Below, piece by piece: positions 15,601 through 38,627 of a DNA stretch of 64,000 bases (positions are counted from its first letter, which is position 1; every line of letters begins with the position of its first letter). The DNA lies in NCBI GenBank assembly GCA_973895155.1, contig OZ316891.1, forward strand, positions 11,716,771 through 11,780,770. The letters are read 5' to 3'. The notes under the pieces are model-generated. The model saw nothing but the letters and a program-made list of their open reading frames with translations, was not told where the DNA came from and made no database searches. The DNA comes from Marsupella aquatica (taxonomy: Eukaryota; Plantae; Marchantiophyta). Both the position numbers and the translations under genes were made by a program.

Positions 15601-16176
15601 TACTTGGGGTTCTGAAGCCACCTGGGAAAATACAATGCCATTCATGCTTGAGAACTACATATAGCAGAATGGATGACGGCAACATTCAATGCTTCACTTC
15701 AAGAAAAATTCTTCAAACATACATACCTGTAGCTCTGCCTGTAGATGCCTGTGCAGGGACTGCACTCTGAAATTGTTGCGACCCTGGACCACCTGTCCAG
15801 CCTAGTACAGGGGCCGGATGATGTCACTTTCTAGGTATGTGTGTGCAAACATATGTACTGAAAACTAAGTACAAACTGTAGGAAAACAACTGAACATTCA
15901 CCGACATACCTGTCCCCCTTCCGTGCTGCATCTGCATAGGGGCATTAGTGAATACTTGAGTTGATGGTTCGACTGTCCAACCTGCACACATACATTTTCT
16001 ATCATTATACATGTGCAGAGTCCCCCCCACATGAATGGACTCCACATATAATGAGTTCTTCCATTGCTGACAAGATCAGACATTACCTGCTCCTCTTCCA
16101 GCGTTTGTAGGTACTGAATTTTGATATCCCTGCCAATTACCTTCACCACCTTCCCAACCTTGTTCATTCCACGACC

Positions 16177-16651
16177 TGTTGAGCATAGACGACGATCGCA
16201 ACGGCAAGCCCATGAACCATCCAACGCACAATAGTCGACACAAGAGATACGTGGTTCACCTCCTTGAGGCTACGTCCACGGGAACACACAAGAGAGCTTT
16301 ACTGAACTCTAAGCCCGTCGGCTATACCGAGTCTCCACAGTGTAAGCTCTCCCTATCTCTCAAGTGGCTCCATAACAATGAGCCTTGGTTCTACCTCTCC
16401 AAGCACACATGCCTCTTATGATATAGTGTGCAACTTAGTTGTACCTAACCACATAGTTGTACCTAACCACATAGTTGTACCTAATCACGTAGTTGTACCT
16501 AACCACATAGTTGTACCTAATCACGTAGTTGTACCTAACCACATAGTTGTACCTAATCACGTAGTTGTACCTAACCACGTAGTTGTACCAACCCACGTTG
16601 TTGTACCAACCACGTCATACCTAACCTAGACGTAAGAGTAAATACCCAACA
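16177..16651 (-). repeat. Copia 3' LTR with about 10 copies of an 18-bp unit (tagttgtacctaaccaca)
   Basis: Direct repeat of 22305-22779; internal array at about 16436-16625. Confidence 0.95.
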
Positions 16652-16842
16652 ATCTTCCCCTTGACTCTGGTCTAGGGGAGAGTAATACTGCCAATGTATA
16701 TGATCCCTCAGCGGGAAGTTCTGGACAGAAACCAAACCGGTTTCCCTCTCTAACTAGAGCAAACCAGAACTAAGCCGTAGCCTAATACATAGGAATGAGG
16801 AAGAGCATATATCAGTAATTACAATGAATGTTTAAGAAAACT

Positions 16843-19800
16843 CTACTTGTGATGCAATTGCAAAACCTGCAATACGTCACGGTGTCTAGAGAAACTCTCC
16901 AAAGGAATCACTTTGGTAAATGCGTCAGCCGGGTTGAGTTTACCATCAATCTTGACTAGCTCAAACAATTTATCAGACACAGCCTGCCTGATAAAATGGT
17001 ACCTGACGTCAATGTGCTTCACTCTGCTGTCCATCACCTGGTTCACAGCAAGGTGGAGCGCACTTTGACTATCACAATGGAGCTTCACATTCCCCTGTGG
17101 CAATCCCATTTCAGTGATAAGTCTATCCAACCAAATCGCTTCCTTTGCTGCTTCCGCAGCTGCAACATACTCCGCTTCTGTAGTAGACTGAGCAATACAC
17201 TTCTGCAAAGTAGACCTCCAACTTATGCATCCACCGCCAAGTGTGAACACGTATCCTGTTGTTGATCTCCTTCGGTCCAAATCTTGTCCATAGTCAGAAT
17301 CTACATAGCCAATCAATGATCTAGCATTCTTTGCATTCGCATCAAATAAAAGACCATGATCCACGGTACCCTTCAAGTACCTGATAATCCACTTCACTGC
17401 TTCCCAGTGTACCTTCCCTGGATTCGACATGTACCTGCTCACCTTGCCCATAGCCATGGCAAGATCAGGTCTAGTGCAAGTCATCAAATACATGAGACTC
17501 CCCACTGCCTTGTCATATGGAACCTTTGACATCAACCCCTTCTCTGTGTCATCCGTAGGACAGAACGCTGATGATAACTTGAAGTGTGGAGCCAACGGGG
17601 TACTTACTGGCTTGCTATTCTCCATGTTGAACCTTGCAATTACCTTCCTCGCATAACTGCTCTGCGTCAACCATAGCTTGCCAGCCTCCAAGTCCCTAGT
17701 GATCTCCATACCCAAAATCCTCTTAGCTGGCCCTAAGTCCTTCATCTTAAACTCTGCACTAAGCAGTGCCTTGAGCTTAACAATCTCAGACCTATCCTTG
17801 GCTGCAATTAGCATGTCATCCACATAAAGTACTAAAACAATGAACCCAAAGACAACATTCTTCACCGGTTTCAAATACACACAAGGGTCAAATACACTTC
17901 TGTGAAAACCTTGTGACCGAATCCAATCGTCAAACCGCTTGTTCCACTGTCTTGGTGACTGCTTCAACCCATACAAGGATTTCAGCAATCTGCAAACCAA
18001 TTCCTCCTGTCCTCTCTTCACAAAACCTAGCGGTTGTCTCATGAAGATCACCTCTTCCAATGTGCCATAGAGGAAAGCTGTGACAACATCCATCTGATCT
18101 AGGAGCAGACCAAACATTACAACAAGTACACACAATAGTCGTATTGTAGAGTACTTAGCAACTGGTGAGAAGACCTCATTGTAATCCACACCTTTCTCTT
18201 GTGTGAATCCCTTTGCTACCAATCTAGCCTTGTAGACCTTCGATCCACCTCCTATGGAATTATCCTTCAGCTTGTAAATCCACTTGCTGTCCACCACTTG
18301 CTGACCCTTAGGCAGCTTAACAAGCTCCCAAGTTTTGTTGTCCTTTAGTGACTGCATCTCTGTTTGCATTGCTGCAGTCCACTTTTGCTTCTCCTTTGAA
18401 GCACTTGCCTCATGAAATGAAGAAGGTTCTCCTTCTTCCAAAATTAACGCATCACCCTCATCATCAGCTGTAAAATCATCCTCTTGCAGTTGAGATGAAT
18501 CAACCCACTGTCCATACCTTGATGGAGCGCGTACAGTGCGACCAGATGTTCTTCTAGCCGATGACTCCGGTTGATCTGCGTGTGCTGGTACAATTTGAAG
18601 CTCAACAGCATCCACTTGCTGCTCACCAGCATCAACAAACTCCTCTGGTTCCTCTGGCACAGGAACCAGCTCCATAATTGGAGCAACTCCTTCTCTCCGG
18701 TCATGCACCTCATAACCAATCTCCCCCTCAACGAGATCCGGGATAGGAGATTTTCTTTTGTCAGTACGGGAGACCTGAGTATTCTCCCCCTCCTTCAATA
18801 ATCTGGATTCATTGAAGGAAACATCCCTACTGACAACGAGCTTACAGGCAATAGGATCCCATAGCCTATAGGCTTTCACACCACTCTGGTACCCAAGAAA
18901 AATACATTTCCTGGAGGTAGGATCCAACTTGGTCCTATTCTGCTTTGGTGTGAGAGCATATGCATCACTTCCAAAAATTACCAAGCCATGATAGTCTGCT
19001 TGCCGCTTATAGCGCATCTCAAACGGCGTTTTGAAATTGATAGCACTAGAAGGAGAAAGATTTACCAAATAAGCTGCGGTATTGACAGCTTCTGCCCAAA
19101 ATTCTTGTGGTAAACCTGATTGGCTCAACATACTCCGTGACCACTCCAACAGTGTCCGATTGAGCCTCTCAGCGACACCATTCTGCTGCGGAGTATAAAC
19201 TGTGGTGAGATGGCGAGTTATCCCCTGTTCTGAACAGTACTCTTCAAATTCCATTGAAGTGTACTCCCCGCCGTTGTCTGACCTCAAACTCTTCACCCTT
19301 GTATCCAAACACTTGATCGTGTTTCCAGTCTGATTCTCCACCTGGGCCTTCCATTTCTTAAAAATGGACAAGACATTAGACTTATGCATCATGAAATAAA
19401 TCCACACAAATCTTGAGTAATCATCAATAAATGATACATAGTACAACTTTCCAGAGTGTGAGGGAGTCGGGGATGGACCCCACACGTCACTATGTATGTA
19501 CTCAAGAACCGCTTTGGAACGATGAGTTCCAACACCAAAAGCACGACGATGCTGCTTTCCAAGAATGCAATGCTCACAAAACTCTAATTTACAAGATTGC
19601 AAATCAGAAATGAGTCCATTCTTCCGTAAGATAGCCAAACCCTTCTCACTCATGTGGCCTAGCCGTGAATGCCACAGTTGAGTCATCTCCTCGTGAGACT
19701 TGGTTACATTGGCCTCTCCACATACAGTATTGCCCTGTAACACATACAAATTCTTTTGTCTACTCCCCTTCAAAATCACTGTCTCTCCCGACCTGACTTG

Positions 19801-20070
19801 AAGTTCACCATCAATAACGCTCCATTGATGACCATTTGAATCCAACACACCGAGTGAAATCAGATTCTTACGCATGCCAGGTACATACCTGACTCCGGAC
19901 ACTGTGCGCACAGCGCCATCAAACATTTGAATCTTCACAAACCCAATTCCCTCAATTTGACAGGAGTGATCATTTCCCATCAGAACTGAACCGTTTGAAA
20001 TAGAGTAAGAACTGAAAAACTCACGAATGTAACAAATATGAAAAGAGCAAGCACAATCAAGAATCCACAC
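16843..20070 (-). CDS. pol: Copia pol (protease, GAG-pre-integrase, integrase, RT, RNase H)
   Basis: WILDCACSFH (protease-site variant), LWHSRLGH, HSDVWGP, SDNGGEY, PQQNGVAER, YKARLVAKG, LYVDDM, GYVDSD, KHIDVRYHF; uninterrupted ORF. Confidence 0.95.
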   Translation of the reverse strand: MWILDCACSFHICYIREFFSSYSISNGSVLMGNDHSCQIEGIGFVKIQMFDGAVRTVSGVRYVPGMRKNLISLGVLDSNGHQWSVIDGELQVRSGETVILKGSRQKNLYVLQGNTVCGEANVTKSHEEMTQLWHSRLGHMSEKGLAILRKNGLISDLQSCKLEFCEHCILGKQHRRAFGVGTHRSKAVLEYIHSDVWGPSPTPSHSGKLYYVSFIDDYSRFVWIYFMMHKSNVLSIFKKWKAQVENQTGNTIKCLDTRVKSLRSDNGGEYTSMEFEEYCSEQGITRHLTTVYTPQQNGVAERLNRTLLEWSRSMLSQSGLPQEFWAEAVNTAAYLVNLSPSSAINFKTPFEMRYKRQADYHGLVIFGSDAYALTPKQNRTKLDPTSRKCIFLGYQSGVKAYRLWDPIACKLVVSRDVSFNESRLLKEGENTQVSRTDKRKSPIPDLVEGEIGYEVHDRREGVAPIMELVPVPEEPEEFVDAGEQQVDAVELQIVPAHADQPESSARRTSGRTVRAPSRYGQWVDSSQLQEDDFTADDEGDALILEEGEPSSFHEASASKEKQKWTAAMQTEMQSLKDNKTWELVKLPKGQQVVDSKWIYKLKDNSIGGGSKVYKARLVAKGFTQEKGVDYNEVFSPVAKYSTIRLLCVLVVMFGLLLDQMDVVTAFLYGTLEEVIFMRQPLGFVKRGQEELVCRLLKSLYGLKQSPRQWNKRFDDWIRSQGFHRSVFDPCVYLKPVKNVVFGFIVLVLYVDDMLIAAKDRSEIVKLKALLSAEFKMKDLGPAKRILGMEITRDLEAGKLWLTQSSYARKVIARFNMENSKPVSTPLAPHFKLSSAFCPTDDTEKGLMSKVPYDKAVGSLMYLMTCTRPDLAMAMGKVSRYMSNPGKVHWEAVKWIIRYLKGTVDHGLLFDANAKNARSLIGYVDSDYGQDLDRRRSTTGYVFTLGGGCISWRSTLQKCIAQSTTEAEYVAAAEAAKEAIWLDRLITEMGLPQGNVKLHCDSQSALHLAVNQVMDSRVKHIDVRYHFIRQAVSDKLFELVKIDGKLNPADAFTKVIPLESFSRHRDVLQVLQLHHK

Positions 20071-20115
20071 ATCATCTGCTCTCCTAGATGACGTGCACAG
20101 GGCATACCCCCGGCT

Positions 20116-21150
20116 TCATAAAACATACTCATCATTGAGTAAATCAGCTTCTCCATCAGCCCTAGCCACATTTGCCGATGAAGTTTCCGCTGCCTTTCCC
20201 TTACAGTCTCGCTTGAAGTGTCCAACTTGGTTGCACTTCCAACATGTCACCTGCCTCCTCTGAGGGGATTTACCCTTGGACTTAGATCTGGATTTAGATC
20301 TAAACTGGGTTCTACGGTCCCCAGTTGGTCGCTGCATACTCCTCCCACGGTTAACATTGAGGGCAGCACCAGATGATGAAGGCTGTGACGTGATGTGCAT
20401 CTTCTGCTGAAGATCATCACTAAGCAGAGAACTTACCACGTCATTGTATGAAATGGTATCCCTATCACGATGCAACAACACTCGTGATAGGGACTGGTAA
20501 GATGGAGGCAATGAACTAAGAAGCTGCAGAGCCTTCGTCTCATCATTCAAAGTCTCCCCAAGGTTTTCCAAGTCAACGACCATGTCGTTGAAAGCATCCA
20601 CATGGTCTTGCAACTTCGTACCAGATTCCTTCATCCTGAAACTCATCAGTTTGTAGGAAGTGTAGAGCCGGTTCGACAACTCCTTGCGGTGATACTTGCT
20701 CTGCAATTCCGCAAATAAGGACATGCAATCCTTATGTGCACCCAACTGCTTGATGATGGGAGGCATGAGATAGAGTGTAACACACCACACTCCCTGCTCC
20801 TGCATGCGGTCCCATTGTTTCTCATCAACATCGTCTTCACGAGGGCTCAGCAGTTGGCCCATCCCTGACGCATAAAGCACTCCCTTCACCTGCTTCTCCC
20901 ATAGCAAGTAGTCAGAGCGCCCATCATACTTTGTCACTTCATACTTGGGTCCCCCAAGCTTGAAAGTCCCCATCTTCTTCTTTACCGTGAGCTCCGGTAG
21001 TAGTACTGCTTCCTCCACCACACGCCGCACCGGTGATGGTATCGGTGTCACGTGCTCTTCCTCCTGCTCCTCTCTCTGCCCCTGAAACCTCCGCGGTGAC
21101 CCTCGTGCTTCAAGTTCCACGTCTTCGAAAAACTCCTCCGAATCACTCAT
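20116..21150 (-). CDS. gag: Copia gag (UBN2-like capsid plus CCHC zinc knuckle)
   Basis: KYDGRSDYLLW, LLSSLPPSY, CWKCNQVGHFKRDC. Same frame as pol, separated by one TGA. Confidence 0.92.
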   Translation of the reverse strand: MSDSEEFFEDVELEARGSPRRFQGQREEQEEEHVTPIPSPVRRVVEEAVLLPELTVKKKMGTFKLGGPKYEVTKYDGRSDYLLWEKQVKGVLYASGMGQLLSPREDDVDEKQWDRMQEQGVWCVTLYLMPPIIKQLGAHKDCMSLFAELQSKYHRKELSNRLYTSYKLMSFRMKESGTKLQDHVDAFNDMVVDLENLGETLNDETKALQLLSSLPPSYQSLSRVLLHRDRDTISYNDVVSSLLSDDLQQKMHITSQPSSSGAALNVNRGRSMQRPTGDRRTQFRSKSRSKSKGKSPQRRQVTCWKCNQVGHFKRDCKGKAAETSSANVARADGEADLLNDEYVL

Positions 21151-22304
21151 ATGAGAAAGTCACAAAAAATGTTGTTTTTCACAACTTCTCAAAAAACTCG
21201 AAACTCAACACCGCCGCGTAGCCCACAAAGCTAGGAGTCCAATACTGAAAACCGAAATCAAAATCGAAATTTGACGGAAAAGTTATTCAAATTTCGGTCG
21301 AGGTGGGTAAAACCTTGGGAAACTCCCCCGTTTTGACCACCTCAGGGAATAACCGAAATACCAAGTACAACCCGTTGTCGGAATTGCGATGTGATTGGTG
21401 CGCTGCATTGCCAACTTCAATGGCTACGACCTCGTCGAAAAATAACCAAAAAAGTTACCGTTCGGTGGATGAAATCTTTGTCGGACGGTCAAAAAATAGC
21501 TCTCTGGTTTTTTGGAATATTCTATGACCCTTGTACAGGCCCTGTGGGAATTTTGGAAGAACAATCGAGGGGATGACATGTGTCCTCGAACCCCCAAAAC
21601 CCCCTACCACCCTTCGTCGTCGAAATCTGGTCGCGCGCGCAGAAAATACACATGGCAGAATGTACCCCTCGACACCAAACGCAAGATATCTCACTCGGGT
21701 TTTGACTAAATCAAGATCCGATTTCAGATTTGGAAACTAGACTCCGAGGCGATGAAGATCGATATAAGAAGCACCCAAAACGAGGAAAGAACGAGGGAGA
21801 AAAAAATTGGTAAAGATGACAGATTTCTCTCAATTGCCATAGCCAATTTCGAATCAGTTTTTCAAAGAGAAAAAAATGGTACCTTGTCAACAACGAATGT
21901 TGATCAATTGCACTTGGTGTCGTCACCAAGTCCAACAAGGTAATTGATTTTGCTTAGCCTTCCTCTTTGCATCAAAGAGCCAATCCCGGACTCAAAAACA
22001 ATCGTCTTGCCTCAATCTCTCCGTTGAGTCAAAACACTTGACGCTTCTCCCTCCGAGTCGATTGCCAACTTTCTTCACAAAATCCAGAACGACGAAAACT
22101 TAGATCTCTCTGCACCACGAGCTCCGTTCAACGATTTCTTCACACCGTTAGAAAGCTCTTGCCCTGATCTATCCGTTGAGCCCATAAACTCCAAGTTCCA
22201 TGCGATGGAACTCTGGAAAATCCACCAACACTCAACGCTGGAAAAACCGTCATGAAATCCCGTCACGAACACACGTCACCTCCCAAGCATGCTCTGATAC
22301 CAAT

Positions 22305-22779
22305 TGTTGAGCATAGACGACGATCGCAACGGCAAGCCCATGAACCATCCAACGCACAATAGTCGACACAAGAGATACGTGGTTCACCTCCTTGAGGCTA
22401 CGTCCACGGGAACACACAAGAGAGCTTTACTGAACTCTAAGCCCGTCGGCTATACCGAGTCTCCACAGTGTAAGCTCTCCCTATCTCTCAAGTGGCTCCA
22501 TAACAATGAGCCTTGGTTCTACCTCTCCAAGCACACATGCCTCTTATGATATAGTGTGCAACTTAGTTGTACCTAACCACATAGTTGTACCTAACCACAT
22601 AGTTGTACCTAATCACGTAGTTGTACCTAACCACATAGTTGTACCTAATCACGTAGTTGTACCTAACCACATAGTTGTACCTAATCACGTAGTTGTACCT
22701 AACCACGTAGTTGTACCAACCCACGTTGTTGTACCAACCACGTCATACCTAACCTAGACGTAAGAGTAAATACCCAACA
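22305..22779 (-). repeat. Copia 5' LTR
   Basis: Adjacent to the PBS; matches 16177-16651. Confidence 0.95.
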
Positions 22780-23998
22780 CGACCCACCACCATCCTCCCA
22801 ACCTGGTTCAACCCATGTCTGTCCTTGTGGACATTGGAACTGATCATTACTAGCATTTGCCCAATCAGGTTGGGCAGAATCTGCATGCAATGGCAGGTGG
22901 ACAGAATTTCATGTTGTCTGAATCCAATACATCCCAAACAATGTCAAAAATTGATATGCAGTCTGAAATTCAGGAGTGCCATGCCTTCACAAAGAACTGG
23001 CATATAGATATATACTCACATCCCCATGGTTGAGGTGGACGTCCATACCCACGAGATTGTGGGTTTGGACCTGCTCTGCCTCTACCACGGGCATAACCTA
23101 GAGCTTGCCCCCTGCCATAGTATTGGGCACCAGCCTGGGATCTACCACTACTACCACCTCGCCAACCTTGATCAGAGGTCAGCCCCCCCTGCTGGTATGG
23201 TGCATGCACAGGCTTTGAAGGCAAAACAGAACTGGCAGGACACTGCATCACATCACCAACTACAATGTCAGGAACTAAGCAAGGTACATATGTGTAGTAC
23301 TGAACATATGAAACCTCTAAACAAGAGTTTTTAACTCAAAAACCTTGTTGGGAAAACTACTTACATGTTTCTTTTGGGGCTGCTCTGCAATGTATTCATC
23401 TTCATAACCCCCATCCTCATCCATTTCCTCTGGAAAATACTCATCATCTGCATCTTCTTGTCTAGTGTCTGCACCCACCTGTGCAGCATCAATGTCATCT
23501 CCACATTCTGCCATTGTAGGTACGACCTTCTTGCTCAACCTGTCACTCCGACGTACAGGCCCAGAGATAGTGCTGGTCACCCTTCTTGCGTATTCCTTTT
23601 GTTTCTTTGAAAATGCTGTGGCTCTGCGACATTCCAATATGAGAATACAGTCACAATTTCAGTGCCACATTGAACTATTCATGTCACACAAACTCAGCGG
23701 AGGGGTGTAGTTGAGAATCGTTCCCTTACAATTCAGCCACATCCTTTTCCAGATCCAGTTCTGCGATTTTGGCTTTCACGTATGCTCGTTGTTCCATAGC
23801 TTTCCTTTCATACTCACACATCTCTGTGTCACTCTGTTCCATCCTACTGGACCACAAAAACATGTCATCTATGGTCACCCCGTATAACACAATGCAACCA
23901 CAATCACCAGGCATCCATCCATACATCTGTGCTGCTTCAGAATTACTTTATTACACATCCTTCCCCTCACTAATGTCCATGCAAACAATTCATATTAC

Positions 23999-26900
23999 TC
24001 ATGGCACAGGCACACTGTTGGCATCTACATCTCTGAATTCGCCTCCTTCAGCAAATGCATCTACCCTTGTCACAGGAATGAAGTCCCCGCTATCATGAAC
24101 TACAGGCACTTGGTCTGAACGCCGACGATCAAAGGCACTATGAGAGTGTAAATGAAACTCAAGGTTTGATCCTTCCATCCGACGTTGCCTAGCCTGTTTA
24201 TGACACACTACACGCCAACCTGGGGAGTCTTCCACATCCAGGAAGAAAGCTTGCTCCACCTGACTAGGAAACACAAATGGCTTAGACCATTCGGGCAATT
24301 TCCCTCTGAAATTGGCCAGCAAGAAACCGTCATTGTCTCTCTTCATGGTAGCCCTGTTACCAAGCCAATCCTGCCGCACCCATGAACCTTTCATAAGAAT
24401 CACAGGACTGGACACCGCCCCATAGTCCAGAGCCCATATGTCAACTAATTCTCCCACATATCCCATCTCCATCCAGGCCCTGTCGTGATTGTGGCTCTGT
24501 TGCTCAAATACAGTGATGAGCCCGCAGTCATTCGTCACCCTGTAGGCACTGTCACCATCCTTCACTCGGAAGTGATTCCCATATGCTCTCATCCGTTTGT
24601 AAGTCTTCACTTTCAAGCTAGGGGCATTAGACAGTAGGTAAATATCTGCATCCATGTCTGGGTGGGTCTCGTGATGCTCTCTAATTGCCACTCTGATCAA
24701 CTCCATGAAACCTGGAAAAGTTGTTCCTGCAGTGGGATGGGCCGCCTTCAATGACTCATACTCCCTGAACGAACAACCACACAGCATTAGCTTGGGTAAA
24801 CATGAACAGGCTGAAGGAGAAAACCACACGAACACAACATTTAAGCTCATGAACTGGATTATAGCACATGTATGCACTCACTGTATCCAGGGTTCCATCA
24901 CCACAGTGTTGTGCAATACAAAGTCATGTGCCAAGTCTCTCATAGATATGGTCAGGTTCTTTGTGGTTGCAGCCCCTTCCAGTACTTCACCTATCACCCC
25001 TTCCTCCTCATCAGAATTCCACACCCTGGTCTTCACATGCTCATATTGTGCTATGTATTCGGTCAGAAATCCCAGAGTCTCATCCTTGATGTAACCTTTA
25101 GCCATGCTTGCTTCAGGTTTGTAATATGTTCTCACGTGACCTTTGAGTAGCTTCATGTACCGTTCCAAAGGGTACAACCAACGAGCACTCACAGGCCCAA
25201 ATTGGTGTAGCTCTTCCACAACATGGACAAGTAGGTGGGTCATGACATCAAAAAATGCGGGAGGAAAATAAATCTCCAGGTCACACAGCACCTGAGCGAC
25301 ATCTTCTGTCAGTTGTGGGAAGTGTGTTTCATCCCAAACCTTCACACAAATACGACGAAACACATCACTGAGTCGCATGATCACAGTACGAACAGACTTC
25401 TGCAACAGGCCCCTCAGGCATAAAGGCAACACCTGTTGCATCAACATATGGTAGTCATGGCTTTTTATACTACCAAGCTTTCTAGTCATGATATGCTTCT
25501 TGAAAGCACTGCCATAGTTTGAAGGAACCTTCAAAGAACTCAACCTCTGCACAAATAGTTCCCACTCTGTGTCTGTCAGAACATAGGGCGCTTGGTACTT
25601 CAAGAGCACATCAGCTTTGTGGGCATGTGGCCTCAACCAAAGATGGGGTTTCATTCCCCTCTGTTCAAGATCCAATCTCACTGAACCAGTGTCTTTCTCT
25701 CCACACAAGAATCTGAGTAGACTCTCACAAATATTCTTTTCAATGTGCATAACATCAATGTTATGTTTGCTTGGCTCAAACTCCTGCATCGTTGCAATGC
25801 AAAAGCGTCAGGAAATGCCTCAAGTTTAGTCTCTCTCTTTGAAATGAATGCACATGCTCTGAACCAAAACATGTATCCCAATTAGCATCAACTCCAAGAG
25901 GCTTACCCTCCAGTACTTGAGCTCCAAGTCCAATATGCTCAGTCTTTTTACACCATATCGCTTTATTGGATCACTCACTCCATCTTCCCTGCCCCCTCGT
26001 TTGATATAGTCATCCCTCAGTGCTCCCCACTGCCTGATCTCCTCTTTGGTCACTCGTGCCGGGGGTCCACGTTGCTCAATCTCATTGCCAAAGTGTGCAA
26101 TCAGTGCCTGTCTTTCTCTGTAAGGGTGATCTGCCTTCAGAAAACGACAATGGCCCATGTATATCACTTTCTGCAGGGCTCTGGAGTACTCACTGGTGAC
26201 ATTGCGCCCACAGATAGTACAAGCACAATATCCTTTTGTTGTTTGGCCTGATATCATCCCATGGGCTGGGTAGTCAGCTATAGTCAGAATGACAATGGCT
26301 CTAAGGATGAATGGGTTTAACCTCCCAAGCCTCTGTAGGACATCATATGTGAGAACTCCTTCCTCCCAAAGCTTTCTCAATTCCTCCACTAGGGGAGCCA
26401 GAAACACATCTATGTTGGCAGATACAGCACTGTCTGGCCCTGGTATCAGTAGGACCATCAGAACAAAAAATCGCTTTGTAGTCATCCAAGGAGGAAGGTT
26501 ATAATTCAAAATAGTTACAGGCCAGCACGAAAATTTGTTGTTCTTGTCTCCAAATGGGTTTACCCCATCCAATGACAGCCCAAGTCTGACATTCCTCGGC
26601 TCAGCAGCAAATTCGGGATACATCTCATCTATGAGTTTCCATTGCCTTGAATCTGTAGCATGTCGTTGTAGCCCATCATCACTTTTCTTGTCAGTTGCCC
26701 AAGTCATCATCTCCGAGATGGCACGGCTTCTGAACATCCGCTGAAGTCTGGGAATGAGTGGAAAATGACGAAGTACCTTGGCGGGAACCATAGACTTTCC
26801 TGAGTTTCGATACCTGTGCTTCCCACACTTAGGGCATGTCAACGATTCTTTATACTCCTTTCTGAAAAGAACATGCCCATCAGGACATGCATGGATCGAA

Positions 26901-27730
26901 TCATAGTTCAATCCAAGATTAGATATGCATCTTTTTGCCTCGTACATGTTCTTGGGCAAAATATTACCATCTGGTAGCACAGTTGTTCGCAAGAATGCCA
27001 ACAACTTAGAAACCAAAACGTTGGGGACATTGTGGTTGCCGCAAATGTTCAGGAACATGATGACAAATCCCAGTTTAGAACATTTGCTACCGGGGTACAA
27101 AGACTTCCTGCCTTCCTGTATTTGCAGGGGAGAGCCAAACATCCCATCATGCCCAGGGGTTTCCTGCCCTATCTCAAACTCATCAAGAGGCTCTTCGACA
27201 GGGGGCACACTTGCATCTGCAACCGTATCCTCTTCATTGTCCAGCCCATCATGAAATGCATCCAAGTCTTGGAAGATGTCTCTCACCATCTCTTCCACAT
27301 GAATTCCTTCGTCACGTGGTGCTGCCTGAGCACCATCCCGTTGGAGAGCTGACAACCCACAGAGACCAGCTACAACATTTTCAAATGCACCAGGCAGAAC
27401 CTCACTTGCCCGTCTTGCAGCATTGGCAGCATCAAATTCTAACCTCCACTCCTCGTCGGAAGAATCTTCCTCTGCAGGATCATTCCAAACTCGATGTTGT
27501 GGATCTCTTCCATGAACCGCGATATGCCGCCAAACCTCATTCAGACCCCTGGTACGGGATCCTTGGCAGATTGCACAAGGATATCTCATCCTACTGGCTC
27601 CTGAAAGTCTGGTTCGTAACCTTTCATGCTGCCAAAGCTTATTATCATGGCGTGATATCCTTGTGGGATGATGCAAAGGCAGTGCCTCTGCCCTGGGCTG
27701 GGTCTGGGGAGGGTGGTGACCAGGGTGCAT
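23999..27730 (-). CDS. TnpD-like CACTA transposase of the inner element (transposase-associated Zn motif, Transposase_21, DUF4218, DUF4216)
   Basis: Exons about 27730-25907, 25783-24882 and 24764-23999 with in-phase GT-AG introns. Motifs YPCAIC...WRHI, IHACP, RNVRLGLSLDGVNPF, NLPPW, DYPA, DVMHIEKN, KSHDYH, PPAFFDVMTHLLVH, WLYPLER, PFVFPSQVEQAFF. Confidence 0.92.
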
Positions 27731-28163
27731 TGTAACAGGCTGGGAGCTCTGCAGTCATGGACAGCAGTGAACAAGGATGCCTAATGGTGGTATTTGTGTT
27801 CCATATATCCCTGACTGTATCTGCCAAAAGAGTTAACATAACGTGTACTAAATTCTCACAAACCCTAAACCACCCCAAAAGAAAAAAACAGGTTCGCAAG
27901 TAGTGTACCTATTGTCAAGTGAATGACACAAAATTCCTAAATGTTGGAGGGTGTCACCACCTCCTCCGCTGTCCTCAAATGTACCGCCTCTGCATGTACG
28001 TTTACAGTGACACCCCCAGGCAGCAGGAAACAACAATCCGCCAACAGTAAAATAAGCCCAACTGCCACCAACCATAACAAGGTACATTAGTTCAAAGATC
28101 ACATTTATTTCAATGATCTGATTTATACAAAAAAACTTGTGTCCAAACTGATGCTACTACTTC

Positions 28164-29042
28164 TCACTCTGATTCAGAATCGCTAATGACCCATTCCTCA
28201 CTTGTTGTCTCATAGTCCTCTCTGTAAGGATCCTGACCCTTCCATGGCCAGGCCTCAAAAAGATCATAGTCCATTGGGTTTTGACGCTTCCCAGCTGCTA
28301 CTGATTCCACAAGCCAAGCATATGAAACCACAAACACATTATGGGACATGACATAAAAGCGAATGTCTCCCTTCCCAAACTTGCGGCAGGCTTTGGGATA
28401 TGACTTAGTAATGACATGAGTGGTGTCCTCTGTTATATTCTCCTCCACTGTCCCACCTAGGTCAAGCACTGTGGACTTGTACACTTTGCACTTAACCTCT
28501 CCAATTCCCGCCTCCACAAATACCATGCTCAGCCCTTTCAGAATGGGGGTTGGTTGCTTCGTCTCCTCAGCCAACATACACTTCAGCCTTGTAGAGCTCT
28601 GTCCTTTGTTGAGTACAGGTCCATATTGGAGATCAGCAAGCCGTGCCTTTGCTTCCCAGACTTCTTGTTCAGCCCAAGCTGATGCAATAGCTTCTTCATC
28701 CTCCCACAACTCATATTGCTCAGTATCCTGTACAATCTTATGTGCTATGGAATCTGTGATCCAAGAGGCCTCAACTACTTTTAGGCCTTGCTTAGTAATT
28801 GCAGAATTCATGTAGGACCATGACCACTTCTTTATCACTGATAGCCATGTCCCTGCAACAACATGTGTAGTCTCTGGAGTGATGTCCTGAACTACAGTGC
28901 CATGGAGCTCAGAGAATCGTTTCTGTACAGTTGGCCAATGCACTTTGGTCAACCCATGCTGGCCATGGACCAAAATCGCTCTGACCCCTGTAAACACTGC
29001 TGGGTGGTCACACTTTCTACGTTTACCAGGCTCCATGTACAC
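28164..29042 (-). CDS. Tandem BRCT-domain protein (Pol lambda-type BRCT), cargo of the inner CACTA
   Basis: Two related repeats: VFTGVRAILV...LHGTVVQDITPETTHVVA...VVEASWITDSI and ILKGLSMVFVE...LGGTVEENITEDTTHVIT...VVSYAWLVESVAAGK...DYDL. Both show the BRCT GG, THxI and WxxxS hallmarks. Confidence 0.8.
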   Translation of the reverse strand: MYMEPGKRRKCDHPAVFTGVRAILVHGQHGLTKVHWPTVQKRFSELHGTVVQDITPETTHVVAGTWLSVIKKWSWSYMNSAITKQGLKVVEASWITDSIAHKIVQDTEQYELWEDEEAIASAWAEQEVWEAKARLADLQYGPVLNKGQSSTRLKCMLAEETKQPTPILKGLSMVFVEAGIGEVKCKVYKSTVLDLGGTVEENITEDTTHVITKSYPKACRKFGKGDIRFYVMSHNVFVVSYAWLVESVAAGKRQNPMDYDLFEAWPWKGQDPYREDYETTSEEWVISDSESE

Positions 29043-29339
29043 ACACTCTACGTGATGACAGTGAATTTTGGAAGAATGGGTTCACTTGACAATACAAGGA
29101 CAACAAAATTCCTGCTTTTTGAGTTGATCTGGCCCACTGGTGCTCAGGTCCGATTTTGATAGGTACAAGGGATATGTGAACAATACGTACTAGGCACCTG
29201 CACGGATGCAGGACATTGTTTGAATATATACTACAAAATCCATATCCGTGGTGAAATGAAGTGCAACCAACTTGTCATGGCACATACATATTTTGTTGTA
29301 AAGGAGGATACATTCAATGACAAACTTCATTGCAGTAGC

Positions 29340-29483
29340 AAATGCCTTTGTACCTTAAATGCTAAATATATTTTACTTTCTGTGCAGTCTGCTAAATTGT
29401 AGAGTCTATCTAAATGCCTTTGTACCTTAAATGCTAAATATATTTTACTTTCTGTGCAGTCTGCTAAATTGTAGAGTCTATCT
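29340..29483. repeat. Exact 72-bp tandem duplication
   Basis: aaatgcctttgtacc...agagtctatct at 29340-29411 and 29412-29483. Confidence 0.95.
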
Positions 29484-29494
29484 CATGCGCAGGC

Positions 29495-30174
29495 ATGGCA
29501 CGGCCTAAAATTCAAGCCAAAAAGCGTGTGACAGAGGTGAGAAACACAGGTGTACTTGGGGCAGATGCTACTAACTTCTCTGCAAGTCAGATTTTCCAGA
29601 AGGCAGCTCATTGTTGTGCCATTTGTGACGATGGTGGGGGCCTGGTCATTTGTGAGGGCCTTTGCATGAGGCATTTCCACCTCAACCCGGAGTCTGACCT
29701 TGCTGCAGAAAACAACTGTCCAGGGGTGGGCCTCCCGTCAACACACCAGGGAGACTGGATGTGCACTGATTGTTTGGAGAAGCAGGCTAAGTGTGCACAG
29801 TGTGGGAAGTTGGGGTCCTATGAGGGCTCTGTTGATGCTGCAGCAAATGTTAGGAAATGTCCAGACCGTTTTTGTGTGAGATTTTTCTGTTTTGAGTGTT
29901 TGCCTGCTCATGCCACAGCTTGCCCACTTCATAGGTGCAAGGCATGTGGTGAGCATGATGATGACTACTGGACTGAAATAGTCCACTGTGCTAGGTGTCC
30001 CACTATGTGGCACTATCATTGCCTGAAAGATCATCAAGCAGAGGGTTATGCTTGTGACAGAGAAATCTATGATCACTCTGCACATGGTGTTGATCGATAA
30101 TATTTTATTGTCATCGCCATGCCATTGATCCTACCTCGCGCACTCCTGTGAAAGATCACATATCTTGGCTGTGA
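29495..30174 (+). CDS. EDM2-like composite PHD-finger protein, cargo of the inner CACTA; 1-bp frameshift near 30098
   Basis: CAICDDGG.LVICEG.CMRHFH...CTDC...CAQCGKLGS...CPLHRC...CARCP..WH..CL. After the frameshift it reads IFYCHRHAIDPTSRTPVKDHISW, matching the EDM2 pattern LIYC..HEID..L.TPVRDH. Confidence 0.8.
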
Positions 30175-32531
30175 AGCTGAACATTGTACATGCACAGTGC
30201 ACCTGATGTGGATGTACTATTTTTTGAGATTGCAGAGATTCCAATTTTGAAAAGGAGTTGGGTAGGCGAGTTTATATAGGCAGCACTTATCTTGTGCTCT
30301 AGCGTCAGTGGCTGGGTACATGCCTATACAAACTTATCCTTACAAGCCTTCTTGGAAGTATTTAGGCTGAGTGGTCATTTTCATAAACACTTTCATCAGA
30401 CTGCTAAATTAAAACAGGACTTCTAAGTTGTAAGCGTATAAATTATCAGGCATGCAATTAATCAAATTGCCCTATGAATGGCCACACAAGGATGCAGAGC
30501 ACACATACTTTTGGTATGTTGAGCCCACACACAAAACTGATCCCCTAATACAATTTCTCCACCAACACCTCAATTTTAATTGTGGCTATGATTCACCAAA
30601 GGAGATCTGCAACAACATTTCATGCATTTGAATCACATACAATAGTCGTGACATGTAAAACAGGCATTCTTCGAAGAGGATTGGTATGAAGCAGTGTCAT
30701 AAGGGTTGAAATTTATACATCCTAAATAGGTTATGATAGTGGCTGAGACAAATAAGTGAGGCATAAATCATTTTGCATATTATCACATGGCCCATTAATT
30801 CATTCAACGTTGCAATGTTCACCAGGTTAAAGCAGTCATGAAAGCAGTCTTTCAATAGAGACTTTTATGCGAGTTTGCTAGCTTCTTAAATTAGGATATT
30901 TTGCTTAGTGCAGGCATAATAGGATATAAGTTATGTACTGTTGACCCTAAACCCTGGACCCAAAATTGCTCATACATCAAAATTTTAAGTAAATATCCTC
31001 TGTGTTGAAGTCAGAGTGTTAAGCTATAGGTCAATGGTATCTGGTCTGTGCATGCGGTGTGACAAGTGGTCCTCTAGAGCATGTGATCCAAACATGTGTA
31101 GACACCAAAGTCACCGATGGTGGGGTCTGGGAGGGCAGGACAAGTGACATCACCAGGCACACTGCAGGATGGCGAGTGGTTCCAGATGATACATTGTGCT
31201 CTGTGCAAAAATCAGCATCCAAGAGAACGGTCATCCAATTCTGGGCCAGAAGCCCTACAGGCAGGACAGTCATATTGGCAACTGTGTACACACCCTTGGC
31301 ACCTAATTTGTGGCGGGTCATGTACAAGAGACACAAATACCAAGGATGTCGGGAAGGGAACTGAAGCAGGTAGAGGCCGGCTGTAGTTGTTCCTGGAAAC
31401 AACAGGGTACTCAAAGTACCATGCAGACTGGGCTGGAAGGATCCCAAGTCTGATATACTCAAGGCGCAACATCTCTGCCTTGCGTGCAAGTCGCACATGT
31501 TCAGCGTTGCGGGTCCTCACCATAAGTGTTGCTTTCGTTGTGATGTCCTCTGTTCACGTCCTTTGATGAGCAAGGTGAGCAGGAGGTCGACTTGCCTCGC
31601 CAACAGCAACCACCTAAACTAATCAGTTCCCACTCATTGTCTTGGTTCCAACTACAGGTCATAGTATACACATAGCATGAAACGTGCATAGTACATATTT
31701 GATTCTGAGTTTATGAGTTTCCTAAGACAAAGAGCTTGGTGATAAACCCATATTCTCGACGGACATGTATATCAATCATATTAAACTCCTGTTTTTTCAT
31801 CCAGAAAGACCGAAAGTCTCACCTTGCAGGTTGCAGCAGAGAGAAAATTCACTGGTTGTCATGTTGTGCAAGTGAACCTCCACTGATGCCCCGGTGTAGC
31901 CCCTCAGATGCAGGTGACACTTACCAACTCCCAAGTTGCCTGGTCTAACAGAAAATGCTTATATCTTCAGAACTTTATAGAGCAAGTACATGATCACATA
32001 CTTCTGGATCTATTCATATTTGGAACTCTTGCCAACTACAACTCCCATTATGCACAAGCTCACATCAACAGAGAAAGATACAGAATGCATACTTACTATG
32101 GCTCTAAGCACCTTCACTACCTTGTTGAACCTAGTCCTGAAGTCTTTTCAGCGTGTTTGTTGTGCTGTCTCCTTTGGCACCCAACACCTTAGTCCTTGAT
32201 GTAACAGAATGCGATTTTACAAGTTAGATGCTTTGGAACCTTCTATGGTCTTAGCTGAATTGATGTCATCGTAAGTGGTGAAAGACAAGGAAGACGAAAG
32301 CTGGTTGAAGAGCTGTGGACAACACACTAGCATGAAGTGCTTCAACCAATCCACTGCCAAACGGAACTCTTACACAGTCACATTCTTTTAGTAAACAAAA
32401 ACTCAGTCAAACTTCAGAATCAAAGTACAGACTCTGAAGGACCAAAGGAGGATGTTGTGAGTTTCTCTGTTGTTTAATGTGTTACCCTTCTAGTTTCGAA
32501 GTTAGCAAATGCTGAATAATGTGTCTACCAG

Positions 32532-32874
32532 ATCTTCGAAAAGAAGCCCACCACAATTAAGAACTTCGGTATCTGGGTCCACGTATCAGAGTCGTACAGG
32601 TTATCACAACATGTACAAGGAATATTGTGATACCACAAGAAACGGAGCTGCAGAGTAGATGTATGATGAGATGGCTTCTTGTCATAGAGTTCGGTTCCCT
32701 TGCATCCAGATCATGAAGACTACGACAGTCCCTGTCTCTCTGTGCAAGCGAGAAAGTACCAAGCAGTTCCATGATTCAAAGATCAAGTTCCCCTTGACAT
32801 ACTGCAAGATTCAACCTCCATTGCGAAAGCTAAAGAAGACTTACAAGGCCACCAAGCCCAACACAATTGTTTGA
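32532..32874 (+). pseudogene. RPL18A: Captured last exon of 60S ribosomal protein L18a (eL20)
   Basis: [29 protein letters not shown]...[15 protein letters not shown]...[19 protein letters not shown], with a frameshift and an internal stop. Preceded by an intron-like acceptor (ctaccag). Confidence 0.92.
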
Positions 32875-35800
32875 GTAGTGCGGGTGCAGGTTCCCAATTT
32901 TGAGACAATTTGGCTCATTTTATGTCCCGAGGGAATCCTGGAGTTTATGTATTGAGTTTCTAGGTGAAGATGCTTAATATAAGGAAATTCAATTATCACT
33001 TCGTTCCCAACTTCTATTAATTGAAAATACACAAGCTGGAAGCAAGAAGACAAGCCACAATCTAGCATCTTAGCCAAACACAATCGTCCCGACAAAGCAA
33101 AACTCAGCTGGACAGAAGTCACTCGGATCCACAAAAAATTGAAGATTCACCTCCAAGCCGGAGGCTGATCACTTCAGTACAGCAGCTTCTAGACGGAACA
33201 AACTCTGCTCAGCCCCACAGAAACACAAATGTTAAGGCTCCAAGTCAGAGCTCACAAACAGAAACTCAGATAAATAACATTCAAAATCTGTCCAGGTTTG
33301 TGCAAAGTGTACATATTCATTCTTCTGGAATGAACACGCAATGCATACATCACCTAGACACAGTCATTATAAATCATTGGGCGATTGGGGACCACTAAGC
33401 AGGTGTGTTCCTATTTCGAGGCTACAGGAAAGGATAGAGTGACACCAAACTCAAGAGTACACCAAAAGAAAAACAGCAAGAACCAAAGTCAATCATGTGT
33501 GGATAAACTGCACATGGGAAGTTCCCCTGAAGAAGCATCAGTTGCTAACATTGTCACCCGAACCACACCTAGTTTATGACCTCAATGTCTTCAGCCTCAA
33601 TATCCAATCCTCAGCCCCCTGGTGCTTCCGTGTTTGTTCTGAAAATTTCTGTGATGAAATAATTATTCAATACATTCAATAGGAGTTCAGACAATCTGAA
33701 GAGGACTTTGGACTTGAATGGGGGACAGCGTGGCCATATAGTTATCCTTGTGGCCTTCAGCTACGTGTCTCACGCTGAATTTCACTTTCCAGTTTCGAGA
33801 GTTGTGAAGGTCTAGTTTTAGTAACTTCCTCCTGACTCGACTTGGGAGCATTCTCTGTATTTGCTAGCTTGTAGTTAGCTTTGACTCCTTTCAGCTTAGT
33901 TGACGACCCTCTTGAGATATTAACAATTAATATCAAAGGCATTGAAACAAAGCGGGTGGCAGTTTCAGTATCTCAGGCAATGCAAAATTAATCCATACTT
34001 AATCAGCCCTGGCCACACATTCCTTCAAAGCCCCTCATACTAGCAAGCAGGTCTGGCCTGTGAATCTTGTAGTGCTTAACGATACAAAGCCTTCCCAAGT
34101 ACCAATTCAAAAGTAGCAGAAATAGATCGAAAGCTAGTTCCGATGATAGCTCCCAAAAGCTTTCCTCAGCCCAATTCCTATGCACATCAGAGGAGCTCAA
34201 ACCATTTAGAAATGAGATCACAGATTACTCTTGACAATCTCAAAAATGCCACAACCTAAGCACTGACAGCTCCGTCCCCCCATTCTAATTTCTCCGACAA
34301 GTTTGCCTTAAAGCACATCCACTCGCAATTCAAGCAGATTCAGAATCATCATAGACAATAGAGTGTTCTACCATAGCCCACGGTAGGTCCACGGCCATCG
34401 TAACAAACGCTCCACCCCCGGGGCTTATTAGTATTGCTCACTTTTAAGAAGGGCAGTTTTCGCAAAAGCAGTCTAATTGCCTAGACTGCACTAGAAAAGT
34501 TGGAGGCAATATCACAGTGGAGCATTCTGCGTCTAAGGGAGAGCGACGCCGTTCAGGAGATAGATGCGCGAGAGAGTGAAGATGGTGGGGAGCGGAAGAC
34601 GGGTTGGGACTGGACCCTTGGTGCCGGTGGGTAATATGTGGGGTTTCAATGAACAATGGGCCAGTTTGAGGAGGATTAAGAAGCGCGCACCCCACGTTCT
34701 TGTGTGGTGGTTGGGTGGGGTTTTGTTTGATAGAAGAAGAAATCACCATTCTCTTATGGAAGAAAGAAAATCGCAGGAAACAGTGGGCGGGAGAACAAGG
34801 CATGTAATAGAGAACAACGAGGCATGTAATAGAGTACTTGCGGTTACTCTAACGGTGCATGAACACTCACCTTTGTCTTCCGCTTTGTCTGCTGTGGCCA
34901 ACAAATCCCAGAGCACTGCCGAGCTTGGTGGTTGCTTGATGGTTGAAAGTGCGTAGCTCACGTCCCTACCTCAATGTCCAACTCAATGTGGGATGCAGCA
35001 GCTTCTCTTGGTCGCATCTCCTCTTCGTCGCATCTCCTCTTGGTTGCATCTCCTCCTTGTCGCAGCTCCTCTTGGGGTTTACAGCTAGCGCGCAGCAACG
35101 CTCGATGGTTGACAATGCGCAGCTGAGCTAGGAGAAGAACTGAATGACTGTGGTTGCTCTTCTTTGCAGTCCAAGCACCCGGCTGGCAGAATGCTACGAC
35201 ACCTGAAAGAAGCGCACTTTCAGCTGCATGGCCGGGACTAGTAGAAACCGTTGACGGTGAAGGGCATTCTCGGTTTGGACCTCCTCTCTCCAACCCCTTC
35301 TAACCCGCACCTCCAAAGTTGATTCGGGAGTTGATTAGCAATAACGTCGCTCCTATGCCAAAGGCACCAAGAACCAAGCCAAAAGAAAGGGTTTAGCAAA
35401 GGGAGAGCGATGTAGTGTGCACTGATCAATGACTCAAAGTTGACGTCGAATCCTCCATTGCGCTAGCTATTGGCGATTGCCACACAGAGAGCAGCCGTAT
35501 GTAGCAAACTGTAATGCAGATACTCCCGTCAAAGGTCGATGCGTCACACTCAGCTTTAGAGGAAGGATAAACGATTGAGCAGCATTGCATTGTGAAAAAA
35601 TGTTGGAGAAGCACATTGCTTCCAGGCCCGAACTCACCTCCTTCCCCTTTCACCACTTCGCAGCTCCTCCAAGAGACATTCACTCAAGGGCACATCACGC
35701 AGTTGCTTGCCCTCCTCAGAAGCTCAACACCACAGCCACCAAAGTTGTCAGCTCCCACTGCAACTAAACAGGTCACTACCAAAAGCCCGCTCCCACCGCA

Positions 35801-38627
35801 GCTGAACAAGTGAGCGACACAAGAGTGTAGGACCTCCGCCAAGCCCAGGGCAGCAGCTCAATGAAACTCAATTTGCAACTCGTCTCACTCTCGCTCTTGC
35901 TGCAAAGAAAAAAAAGCGCAGGTCAAACTCCTTTGTGGCCTCAGTCCCCACCGCTTTCCCCAAGCTATGGACAACTACTAGCAGCTTGCGCTCACAGCAT
36001 GACATCCAGGTCTTTAGCCAACTGCACACTGGAAACCGAGAGAAGTGAGCGCAATCACGCAAGGCCAAAAAAGACCAAAGTTGAGCCAAAGCAAAACTTT
36101 ACTAATGTATTTACAGTCAAGCATGAGGGCAATCAGGTAAGCAGAAGACCACGCATTCCCGCAAAGAGTTGTAGGTTCTCGTCACTTCCTCGCCTCTGTA
36201 TAGAAGGTCGATCGTTGTGTCTCGGGTACCCAATGATAGTGGAGATGAATGCAAATAGGCCTCACCAATCGCCAGTCATCCGCGATAAACCTCCCGACAA
36301 CCTTGCTCCTATACACCTTAGCACCCGCGTTGTCACCACAGGAAAGACGAATGTAAGATTTAGGGCCCACCTAAACCCTATAGTGAGATTGCAGTCGACA
36401 ATGGGTCATATAGCAAAGGTCGAAGCTCCAAGCCCTACGCAATGACATGAAATCCCACCTCCAAAAGCGCTAAATGTATTGACTGAGTGCGATCAGGTGC
36501 AAGAGTCGAGAGCAACTGAGGAAAAGTGCATTATCGGGCGCAAAGTGTTTGGCCTTGGATTCCCTTGCAGAAACGTGAAGGAAAACCCTGGTGGTAGCCG
36601 TCGACACTTTGTGCAATTTTCCTTTACAAAATCTGTTTACCCTAAACATTGAGTTGACTGGAAGGACTCGTTCATAGGCATTCTGCAAGCACCTAACACA
36701 TTTAGACGTAAGTTCACAGTTAGGATTAAACGGTAACTAAGACCAAGGGTGCATTTTTTTTTGGGGGGGGGGGCTTTTAGTTGGGTATTTTGGGTATAGT
36801 CATTGGGTTAGATAAATATCCTAAGTCACCCAGATGGCAAAAAACAACACCTACCCTTAAACTCACCCTCCTCAAGCATAAACCCTCTGAAAACCCATTG
36901 GACATTTGGAGTCATTGGCAAAAGAGGGTTAAATGGATGAAGAATGGACCGGGGGGGATGGATGCCGACAATCCAATGGTCCCTAAACCCCCATCCCCTT
37001 AACATGCAACCCCCGACCCTTGACATCAAACCCCCCCCTAAACCCCCTTTAGTGAAAACCCAGCCACCCCCTAGCCTTGACATATAAATTGCCCCGGTTT
37101 CTACTAGTGTGTGAAAACTTTCCCGCTCATGAAACAACAAGACTCTCACTTTGCGGGCGCACTCTCTCTTTCTCCAAGTCCCTCCACAAAAGCTTTTGGC
37201 AGTCAAAAGTTTAGGGCAAAAGCTATTGCCAGTTGTATCAACTTGCAATTGCGCAACATGGTTCATTGGAAGAGGGCTTCCGATAGAGAAATTGATGCAA
37301 CGGCATTGCATTGTGCACTTAAGGAAAAAGAGGTCCTAAATTGGGCCCTTCAATATTCCCATATGAAGGGGGTTCCATTTGATATTGGCTAATTATGGGG
37401 TATATATGCAGAGCAAATTTTTAAAATGAGTTAGTGGATGAAGTGAGTTTTAATATGTGTGTGAGCAGTATGTGACAAGTACCACTAATTGGTTGTGGTG
37501 ACTTTTTTAAGGTAACTATGTATGTAGAGTATTAGGGTTTAGGGTGCATCATTATTTTTGGGGGCATGGCACAAATTTTCACACCTTTTTGAACTCAGTT
37601 GCGGCCGTGTACATGAATGTTAACTTAAATTTGGTTGGTTCTTGTCTAGCTAGAATCACAAATTTGCCCTACTTACCTAAACTTCAATTAGGGTAAAAAT
37701 GTCATGTATACTTTCTTACAGGGGAACAATAAAGAGCAACTCAGTGATGGTTAAAGCAAAGGGAGGTAACTATATATAATTGCATGACATAATGTGATTA
37801 ATATGATGGATCCAAAATCATATGTATTGGGCAAGGAAATCATGTAAGTCATGGTCACTTATATAACTTCAATATACTTGCCTTAACTCAGTTACAGAAG
37901 CAACTTTCCCAATAGTTAAATACATGACTTCCCAAAACTTCACCAAAAGTGAGTCAAGAAGATGTAACAAAGATGACACCCTAAACCTTGGAGTCACTTA
38001 TTTTCAAAGGTCTCACACAAGTCATGTAAGGCTGGGTCTCATAATGGCTCGGTTTCTTCTAGTGCATGTAATCATGATACAACGCAGGGCCAGCACTACT
38101 ACCTCAACTTTTGTCTAATGCATATGCATTGTGGGAACCCGAGCATCTAAAAGGTATAACATCATGTATATAGTCAATGTTATTAGTACAGATTTTTATG
38201 CTTGCCCTTCTTTGTTGTGCCATGATATATGTGGGTAAATGTCTAAGATTCCACAACTTGACGGTTGCTAATTACCATCCAAACTTACATTTTGTTTCCA
38301 GTATTTTCCTCCTACTTCTAGATTTGGCAAATGTTCCAAAAGCCACGTGACCTATAGGCACTGTTGAGCCCGGGTCTCATTCAGGTAATAATCTAACCTC
38401 ACTTAGGACATAGGGTATTACAATTTTCCCAAAGGTTATAATGTGGTTTCTTCTTGCATGACACTCACCTTAATTTGGGTTTCATGCTAACAAATATAAA
38501 AGGGTAATAAAACCCCATGTATAAACCAACCTAATTGTTTTTTGAGTTCATTTTTTTGAAAATCGCTTTATATAAGGCCTAATTTTTCCTAATCATGCCC
38601 TACATGCAATGTAATGTGGCACTGGAT

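Follow-up and report, generated by a model that had tools for sequence, protein, structure and literature searches.

A candidate double-BRCT accessory gene in a CACTA transposon of the liverwort Marsupella aquatica and its likeness to DNA polymerase lambda

Cut-and-paste elements need host break repair to survive and to gain copies, and gap repair from the sister is a route to transposon copy gain. The accessory proteins of plant transposable elements (TEs) known to us have either silencing or the transposase as their target. Table S6 of a survey of 1007 plant genomes (PMC12973397) holds one BRCT hit (RTT107_BRCT_5) in CACTA accessory proteins (775 clusters) and one BRCT-clan hit each in MULE transposases and hAT accessory proteins. 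The word BRCT is absent from the main texts, in their available form, of this survey and of PMC13547354, and from the available text of a giant-transposon review (PMC6431247). Among the papers listed by our literature search, with subscription journals and Repbase outside its scope, none deals with a BRCT gene carried by a transposon. Human DNA polymerase lambda (Pol lambda), according to the available text of PMC12056208, docks helix 1 of its BRCT domain (Arg57, Leu60) on the Ku70/80 bridge, and its catalytically dead form is dominant-negative only if Arg57 is intact. In Arabidopsis Pol lambda, a 13-aa NLS precedes the BRCT domain, which binds Lig4/XRCC4, and the protein has been linked to excision-site repair, the latter two points as cited in the available part of PMC4444747. 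Here we describe a double-BRCT open reading frame (ORF) in a 64,000-nt stretch of the Marsupella aquatica genome (the window) that is a real and, apparently, hitherto undescribed CACTA accessory gene.

The BRCT gene lies inside a CACTA element, as an earlier note on this DNA had proposed, within the limits set by the sole pair of terminal inverted repeats (TIRs) and target-site duplications (TSDs) in the window under the criteria of our search script (12672/38064; Table 1). The TIRs carry CACTAGAAGAA at both ends, with 13 of 14 terminal bases matching, and a 3-bp CAT duplication (12669-12671 and 38065-38067) flanks the element. TnpD matches Transposase_21 (E 4e-69) and DUF4218 (E 5e-28), with DUF4216 below its curated cut-off, and no Pfam family was matched by 13530-14381 in the TnpA-like exon region. 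The nested LTR retrotransposon has identical 300-nt LTR segments at a spacing of 6128 bp; each LTR contains an 18-bp tandem array, and a stop at 20116 separates the gag and pol frames. Read along the minus strand, the element comprises the L18a fragment, which is passive cargo, the PHD ORF, the BRCT ORF, TnpD, the LTR element, and the TnpA-like exons, and 48 of the 49 small frames in its remainder have no Pfam family. The set of domains is indicative of a plant host.

Table 1. Coordinates of the features of the CACTA element, given as positions in the window
Feature	Position	Strand	Composition or evidence
CACTA element, 25,393 bp incl. nested LTR retrotransposon	12672..38064	-	CACTAG termini, TIRs, CAT duplication
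TnpA-like exons	13527..15685	-	Transposase_24 E 1.5e-4, below cut-off, on 15035-15685
LTR retrotransposon between TnpD and TnpA-like exons	16177..22793	-	Copia-type by eye; gag/pol frames
TnpD transposase, three reading-frame pieces (introns inferred)	23999..27730	-	Transposase_21, DUF4218, DUF4216
BRCT ORF, 290 aa, intronless	28164..29036	-	basic N-terminus, BRCT1, helix + loop, BRCT2, acidic Ser/Thr-rich tail
BRCT repeat 2, residues 162-261	28254..28553	-	Pfam; predicted structure; PARP4 BRCT superposition
BRCT repeat 1, residues 12-111	28704..29003	-	Pfam second stretch; model pLDDT mostly 79-89
Inverted segment (window copy vs other copies)	29327..30475	.	opposite-strand joints 29326/29327 to 30475/30476, 4/4 runs
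Cys/His-rich ORF, NSD-like PHD fingers	29468..30100	+	PHDvar_NSD, PHD-1st_NSD, PHD_NSD, all below cut-off
Ribosomal protein L18a fragment, decayed, intronless	32510..32874	+	Ribosomal_L18A E 1.9e-5; one frame change, one stop

The insertion splits a repeat unit, an uninterrupted paralogous copy of which lies near 12190. This unit seems to belong to a second CACTA element, whose TnpD (Transposase_21, DUF4218, DUF4216) occupies 38964-43401 on the plus strand and whose ends were not found within the window. Directly upstream of this second TnpD, a SET-domain ORF (E 5e-6, above cut-off) takes the slot held by the BRCT gene in the inner element. Dense subterminal-type TTGCGA/TCGCAA repeats extend over 8474-11539 and 43788-44315; a CACTACAA start is located at 8474, and a 372-aa ORF without a Pfam family (10231-11349, -) lies between two repeat clusters. 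The rest of the window includes exons of a HEAT-repeat host gene (689-4523, -; HEAT E 0.004; condensin subunit-like by eye), frames of a Replitron HUH endonuclease (E 7.5e-12) and Replitron_C with a stop between them (45262-46467, -), followed by short direct repeats (46868-47499), and stop-broken LINE-like frames for endonuclease, reverse transcriptase, and ORF1, recognized by eye (51299-57120, -).

The BRCT ORF is embedded in a minus-strand, stop-to-stop frame of 305 aa (28164-29081), the plus strand being closed by stops. Translation from the first ATG at 29036 yields 290 aa with two BRCT domains and nothing catalytic; the 292 aa counted originally are accounted for by a GTG at 29042, two codons 5' of this ATG. 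Four related proteins (P0002, P0003, P0007, and P0010) start at a methionine aligned with the ATG at 29036. None of 100 shuffles of the region 27800-38064 reached a stop-free run of 305 codons, the longest shuffled run being 207. Apart from the length, the original description of an intact two-BRCT ORF without a catalytic domain is borne out by Pfam, which assigns two stretches to PF00533 (E 2e-13, 50.8 bits, cut-off 21.3) and also matches BRCT_2 (E 2e-11), but detected no catalytic family, including the Pol X palm, fingers, and thumb. The proposed position on the TnpD strand, about 430 bp upstream of the transposase gene, likewise agrees with the 433 bp that separate the BRCT stop from the first TnpD ATG at 27730. 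The observed/expected CpG ratio is 0.21 in the BRCT ORF, 0.20 in the PHD ORF, and 0.82 in the HEAT-repeat gene.

Structure prediction from a 21-sequence alignment (pLDDT 72.5, pTM 0.40) gave two confident domains connected by a helix (residues 114-138) and a low-confidence loop (137-161); it was used instead of a model from a 3-sequence alignment, which was discarded (pLDDT 35). Repeat 2 superimposes on the PARP4 BRCT domain over 93 residues (Z 15.5, rmsd 1.4 A), so that the BRCT identity found by profile search also holds in structure. PARP4 and XRCC1 lead the structure ranking for this repeat, and the 50 structure matches listed contain no Pol lambda entry, which does not amount to an exclusion. 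A Foldseek search with the whole model was set aside, as two-BRCT chains dominate it at rmsd 13-20 A and the repeats cannot be classified from it. The term "tandem BRCT" used in the earlier note is correct for two repeats in one chain, but is not supported in the BRCA1 sense, since the repeats are modelled as separate domains with a spacer of approximately 50 residues, the helix and low-confidence loop. In comparisons of family profiles, repeats 1 and 2 score 140 against each other and 62-115 against any outside class; being closest to each other, they point to an internal duplication.

A word-based search recovered two relatives that are 59-60% and 54% identical over the full length (P0002/P0003), whose clusters come from Logan contigs only and have no database name. 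Profile searching across 1.84 billion representatives yielded 61 matches. The top 14 range in length from 111 to 313 aa; the 13 of these scanned with Pfam (56 of all 61 matches were scanned) contain BRCT or no family. A Pol X-type catalytic domain is absent from the best family matches scanned and present in three other matches; no fused form ranks among the family matches, although gene calls of this kind capture single exons. Seven full-length two-BRCT relatives share 60, 54, 26, 26, 23, 21, and 21% identity with the window protein; they are unnamed or unchecked, are known without genomic context, and may or may not be transposon-borne. Among the relatives, the BRCT domains are conserved more than the connecting loop, and a Trp/Tyr pattern in helix 2 occurs in 12 of 15 and 8 of 10 family domains. 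An acidic Ser/Thr-rich tail is common to five relatives and missing in four. XRCC4 Thr233-type CK2 sites tether FHA proteins according to the available text of PMC13649775, and the acidic tail may resemble such sites, a likeness that we offer purely as a lead. Three short single-BRCT proteins without catalytic domains (P0030, P0035, and P0058), placed between the family and Pol lambda in trees, are possible one-repeat relatives. A protein atlas search with repeat 2 returned only generic BRCT clusters, all under 0.9.

Judged by sequence comparison, descent of the repeats from Pol lambda is moderately probable. Repeat 2 scores 33.1 bits on an angiosperm Pol lambda profile and at most 21.5 bits on BRCA1-, REV1-, PARP-, and TopBP1-type profiles, and its best non-family match is P0021 from the plant clade (136 vs. 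122). Pol lambda is the best non-family match for 19 of the 25 family domains, which are not independent of one another, with Pol lambda making up 28 of the 54 targets. The family and Pol lambda are joined on one branch to the exclusion of other BRCTs with an SH-aLRT of 97 (bootstrap 58), and again in two reduced trees, one with an SH-aLRT of 93 (35 of 83 rows dropped, as also for the AU tests) and one with 95 under a mixture model (29 of 84 dropped), near-duplicates and long branches having been removed. The relatives P0002, P0003, and P0007 begin with MAP, and 84 of 103 angiosperm Pol lambda proteins begin with MAP[KR]. Among the profile-search matches, P0034 represents the N-terminus of an angiosperm Pol lambda, with 104 relatives that contain Pol X domains, and P0050 has human Pol lambda as its first match; the other Pol lambda labels and the BRCA1-, PARP-, and TopBP1-type labels were assigned from tree position and Pfam architecture. 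The comparison set was picked by the family's own profile and is made up of sequences other than bryophyte or fern Pol lambda, Pol mu, TdT, Lig4, and XRCC1.

The likeness to Pol lambda asserted by the earlier note is therefore favoured by most sequence tests, but the alternatives are not rejected. In AU tests, sister groups of BRCA1-type (p 0.28), REV1 (0.077), PARP-type (0.10), and TopBP1-type (0.10) all remained acceptable. Size-matched profiles place repeat 2 level with BRCA1-type (96.5) and all Pol lambda (93.7) domains and lowest with the angiosperm-dominated plant Pol lambda set (70.8), and three BRCA1-type domains reach 41-44 bits on the repeat-2 profile vs. an angiosperm Pol lambda median of 33. 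Raw identity fails to separate the BRCT classes (21.7% vs. 22.8%), and in PDB sequence searches BRCA1 and Rtt107 come first, with Pol lambda (2jw5, E 1.2e-6) far lower in the ranking. The plant Pol lambda sequence pattern cited for repeat 2 is present in angiosperm Pol lambda domains, and repeat 2 fits it in part. The best trees join the family with Pol lambda, but outside a plant Pol lambda clade (support 100/98), and repeat 1 lies nearer to Pol lambda than does repeat 2 in the mixture-model tree and the family profiles. With the plant Pol lambda profile, repeat 1 of the window copy scores below 5 bits.

Ten listed sequencing runs from 8 studies contain the query stretch wholly or partly, five of them with at least half of its words, and no RNA dataset is among these ten. 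Contigs of runs X1, X2, X4, and X6 cover all 30 bins of 23900-33000, the region by which the runs were picked, and fall into several identity classes, which indicates that the CACTA element is multi-copy; contig depth was not taken as copy number. A 1381-nt X6 contig spans 27664-28918 and connects the BRCT ORF with the start of TnpD at ~95% identity (47 other letters in 922), and two X6 contigs span the entire ORF with 0 gaps. X6 also contains contigs with depths of 393 and 476 that match the BRCT cores with ~80-86% identity, suggesting further, more distant repeated subfamilies. No frameshifting indel within the ORF is listed in 4 runs, the sole listed indel being an in-frame 3-base insertion in run X9; X7, X8, and X9, which contain small shares, yielded short pieces, and we make no claims on those organisms. 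Retention of the gene in other copies, the subject of a check proposed in the earlier note, is supported, with linkage to TnpD in X6. The substitution lists are partial and biased, as sites where several subfamilies overlap were dropped. They comprise 6 synonymous and 17 non-synonymous changes between the BRCT ORF and the X6 copy (expected synonymous share 0.22), 3 and 10 in a second contig (9 of 36 synonymous for both contigs), and 8 and 15 in TnpD (8 of 23). None of the 36 listed and classified BRCT substitutions creates a stop. Set against the expected share, the ratio of 6 to 17 is no clear sign of purifying selection at a divergence of 5%.

The neighbouring Cys/His-rich ORF matches a streptophyte PHD_NSD cluster in the protein atlas (best match 0.90). 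It may resemble the plant EDM2 PHD cassette; a search for longer proteins found neither EDM2 nor other long relatives among 36 candidates. In other copies, this ORF is longer, has the orientation of the BRCT/TnpD strand, and lies upstream of the BRCT gene. The opposite-strand joints indicate an inversion private to the window copy, at whose ends 5 bases of inverted microhomology were read by eye. All four runs also have an extra G behind position 30099, and the window copy is thus one base short near the end of the PHD ORF.

In the alignment to human Pol lambda, numbered by eye, repeat 2 has Lys182, Val185, and Tyr186 at the positions of human Arg57, Leu60, and Phe61, a conservative match that keeps the hydrophobic/aromatic pair as Val185/Tyr186; repeat 1 has His in the Arg57 column and Thr/Val at Leu60/Phe61. 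All 28 Pol lambda domains have Arg in the Arg57 column, vs. K3/R2/other 4 in family repeats 2 (n = 9) and Arg in 4 of 14 repeats 1. That the element keeps the BRCT gene under selection is likely in our estimation. Our favoured but tentative reading goes further: a retained accessory gene, probably derived from Pol lambda and internally duplicated, might act as a decoy or scaffold in non-homologous end joining (NHEJ). The earlier note had suggested that the element may recruit NHEJ factors, or compete with them, where it excises or integrates. The gene would stem from the non-catalytic N-terminus of Pol lambda and have been duplicated internally, and the encoded protein would bind Ku and XRCC4-ligase IV, factors of end joining, at breaks made by the transposase. 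As an anchor without a polymerase, it could serve as decoy or scaffold and take the place of host Pol lambda at the excision site. This would slow end joining at the donor break and favour sister-chromatid repair, by which the element copy would be restored. An unlikely extension is a reverse domestication, in which a CACTA lineage would have taken over part of the host repair machinery: in a three-gene cassette of PHD chromatin reader, BRCT decoy, and transposase, the doubled, catalytically empty Pol lambda anchor would occupy Ku/XRCC4-Lig4 at breaks left by excision and tilt repair toward recopying of the element from the sister chromatid.

A doubtful alternative, though the strongest of the competing readings, is that the gene was retained but lost Ku binding and became a general adaptor for TnpD, TnpA, the PHD product, or chromatin, with effects on target choice or anti-silencing. 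It accords with the variable Ku-contact Arg across the double-BRCT family, with conserved features that lie elsewhere (the helix 2 pattern and, in five relatives, the acidic tail), with the co-oriented PHD ORF that immediately precedes the BRCT gene in other copies, and with the description of TE accessory proteins as fast-evolving interaction hubs in the available text of PMC13547354. However, the Ku-contact residues of repeat 2 remain K/V/Y in the subfamily of the window, and the adaptor interaction is itself hypothetical. Selection need not be invoked if a host gene or gene piece was captured as in Pack-CACTA elements and amplified without benefit, the relatives then representing a small unannotated plant host family. 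The decayed L18a fragment in the same element provides a precedent for such passive cargo, the listed near-copy substitutions lack a purifying signal, and the intact relatives are known without genomic context. Yet the BRCT ORF is intact where the L18a cargo is broken, and this, together with the better-kept domains, we count in favour of a retained gene. The deep X6 contigs, moreover, point to several repeated subfamilies, and the clusters of the two closest relatives derive from Logan contigs alone, without a database name. On balance, we consider capture without benefit decidedly unlikely.

Still less probable is a BRCA1/MDC1-like tandem BRCT that reads phosphopeptides and directs the element to damage marks such as gamma-H2AX. 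BRCA1 does top the single-sequence PDB searches, repeat 2 fits BRCA1-type and Pol lambda profiles equally well, and a BRCA1-type grouping is retained by the AU test. The phosphate pocket of BRCT phospho-readers is formed by Ser/Thr-Gly after strand 1; this motif, present in the BRCA1-type rows, is replaced by His-Gly and Ala-Gly in the window copy. The long spacer and the low pTM of the model also speak against a phospho-reader, as does the deviation from packed tandem BRCTs (rmsd 12-17 A), although the model does not reliably place the two domains relative to one another. Finally, each repeat has its closest counterpart in the other, ahead of all outside classes.

Should the decoy or scaffold reading be true, an element-encoded BRCT protein would give direct access to the means by which a transposon influences the choice of repair pathway. 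Independently of whether the Ku link holds, the double-BRCT proteins form an unnamed stand-alone family that here gains its first genomic home. Compared with known systems, the element resembles CACTA/En-Spm transposons in its CACTA termini, 3-bp TSD, TnpD with Transposase_21/DUF4218/DUF4216, and downstream Transposase_24-like exons, but has two extra ORFs (PHD and double BRCT) upstream of TnpD. The BRCT protein shares with the BRCT region of Pol lambda (2JW5/9G9L; plant) a basic N-terminus followed by a single type of BRCT domain, and, in repeat 2, the helix-1 pattern G-I-G-x-x-K-x-x-V-Y, and the best trees group both. Unlike Pol lambda, the BRCT protein has two BRCT copies and an acidic tail and lacks the Ser/Pro linker and the Pol X domain; its family does not keep Arg57 invariant and falls outside the plant Pol lambda clade. 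With the packed tandem phospho-readers BRCA1, MDC1, Rtt107, and TopBP1 it has in common two BRCT repeats per chain, but it differs in the long helix-plus-loop linker, the absence of predicted packing, and, by eye, the lack of a Ser/Thr-Gly pocket. As an element-encoded, non-catalytic helper beside a transposase, it is comparable to VANC and MURB as described in the available texts of PMC12973397 and PMC13547354, although VANC and MURB are not BRCT proteins.
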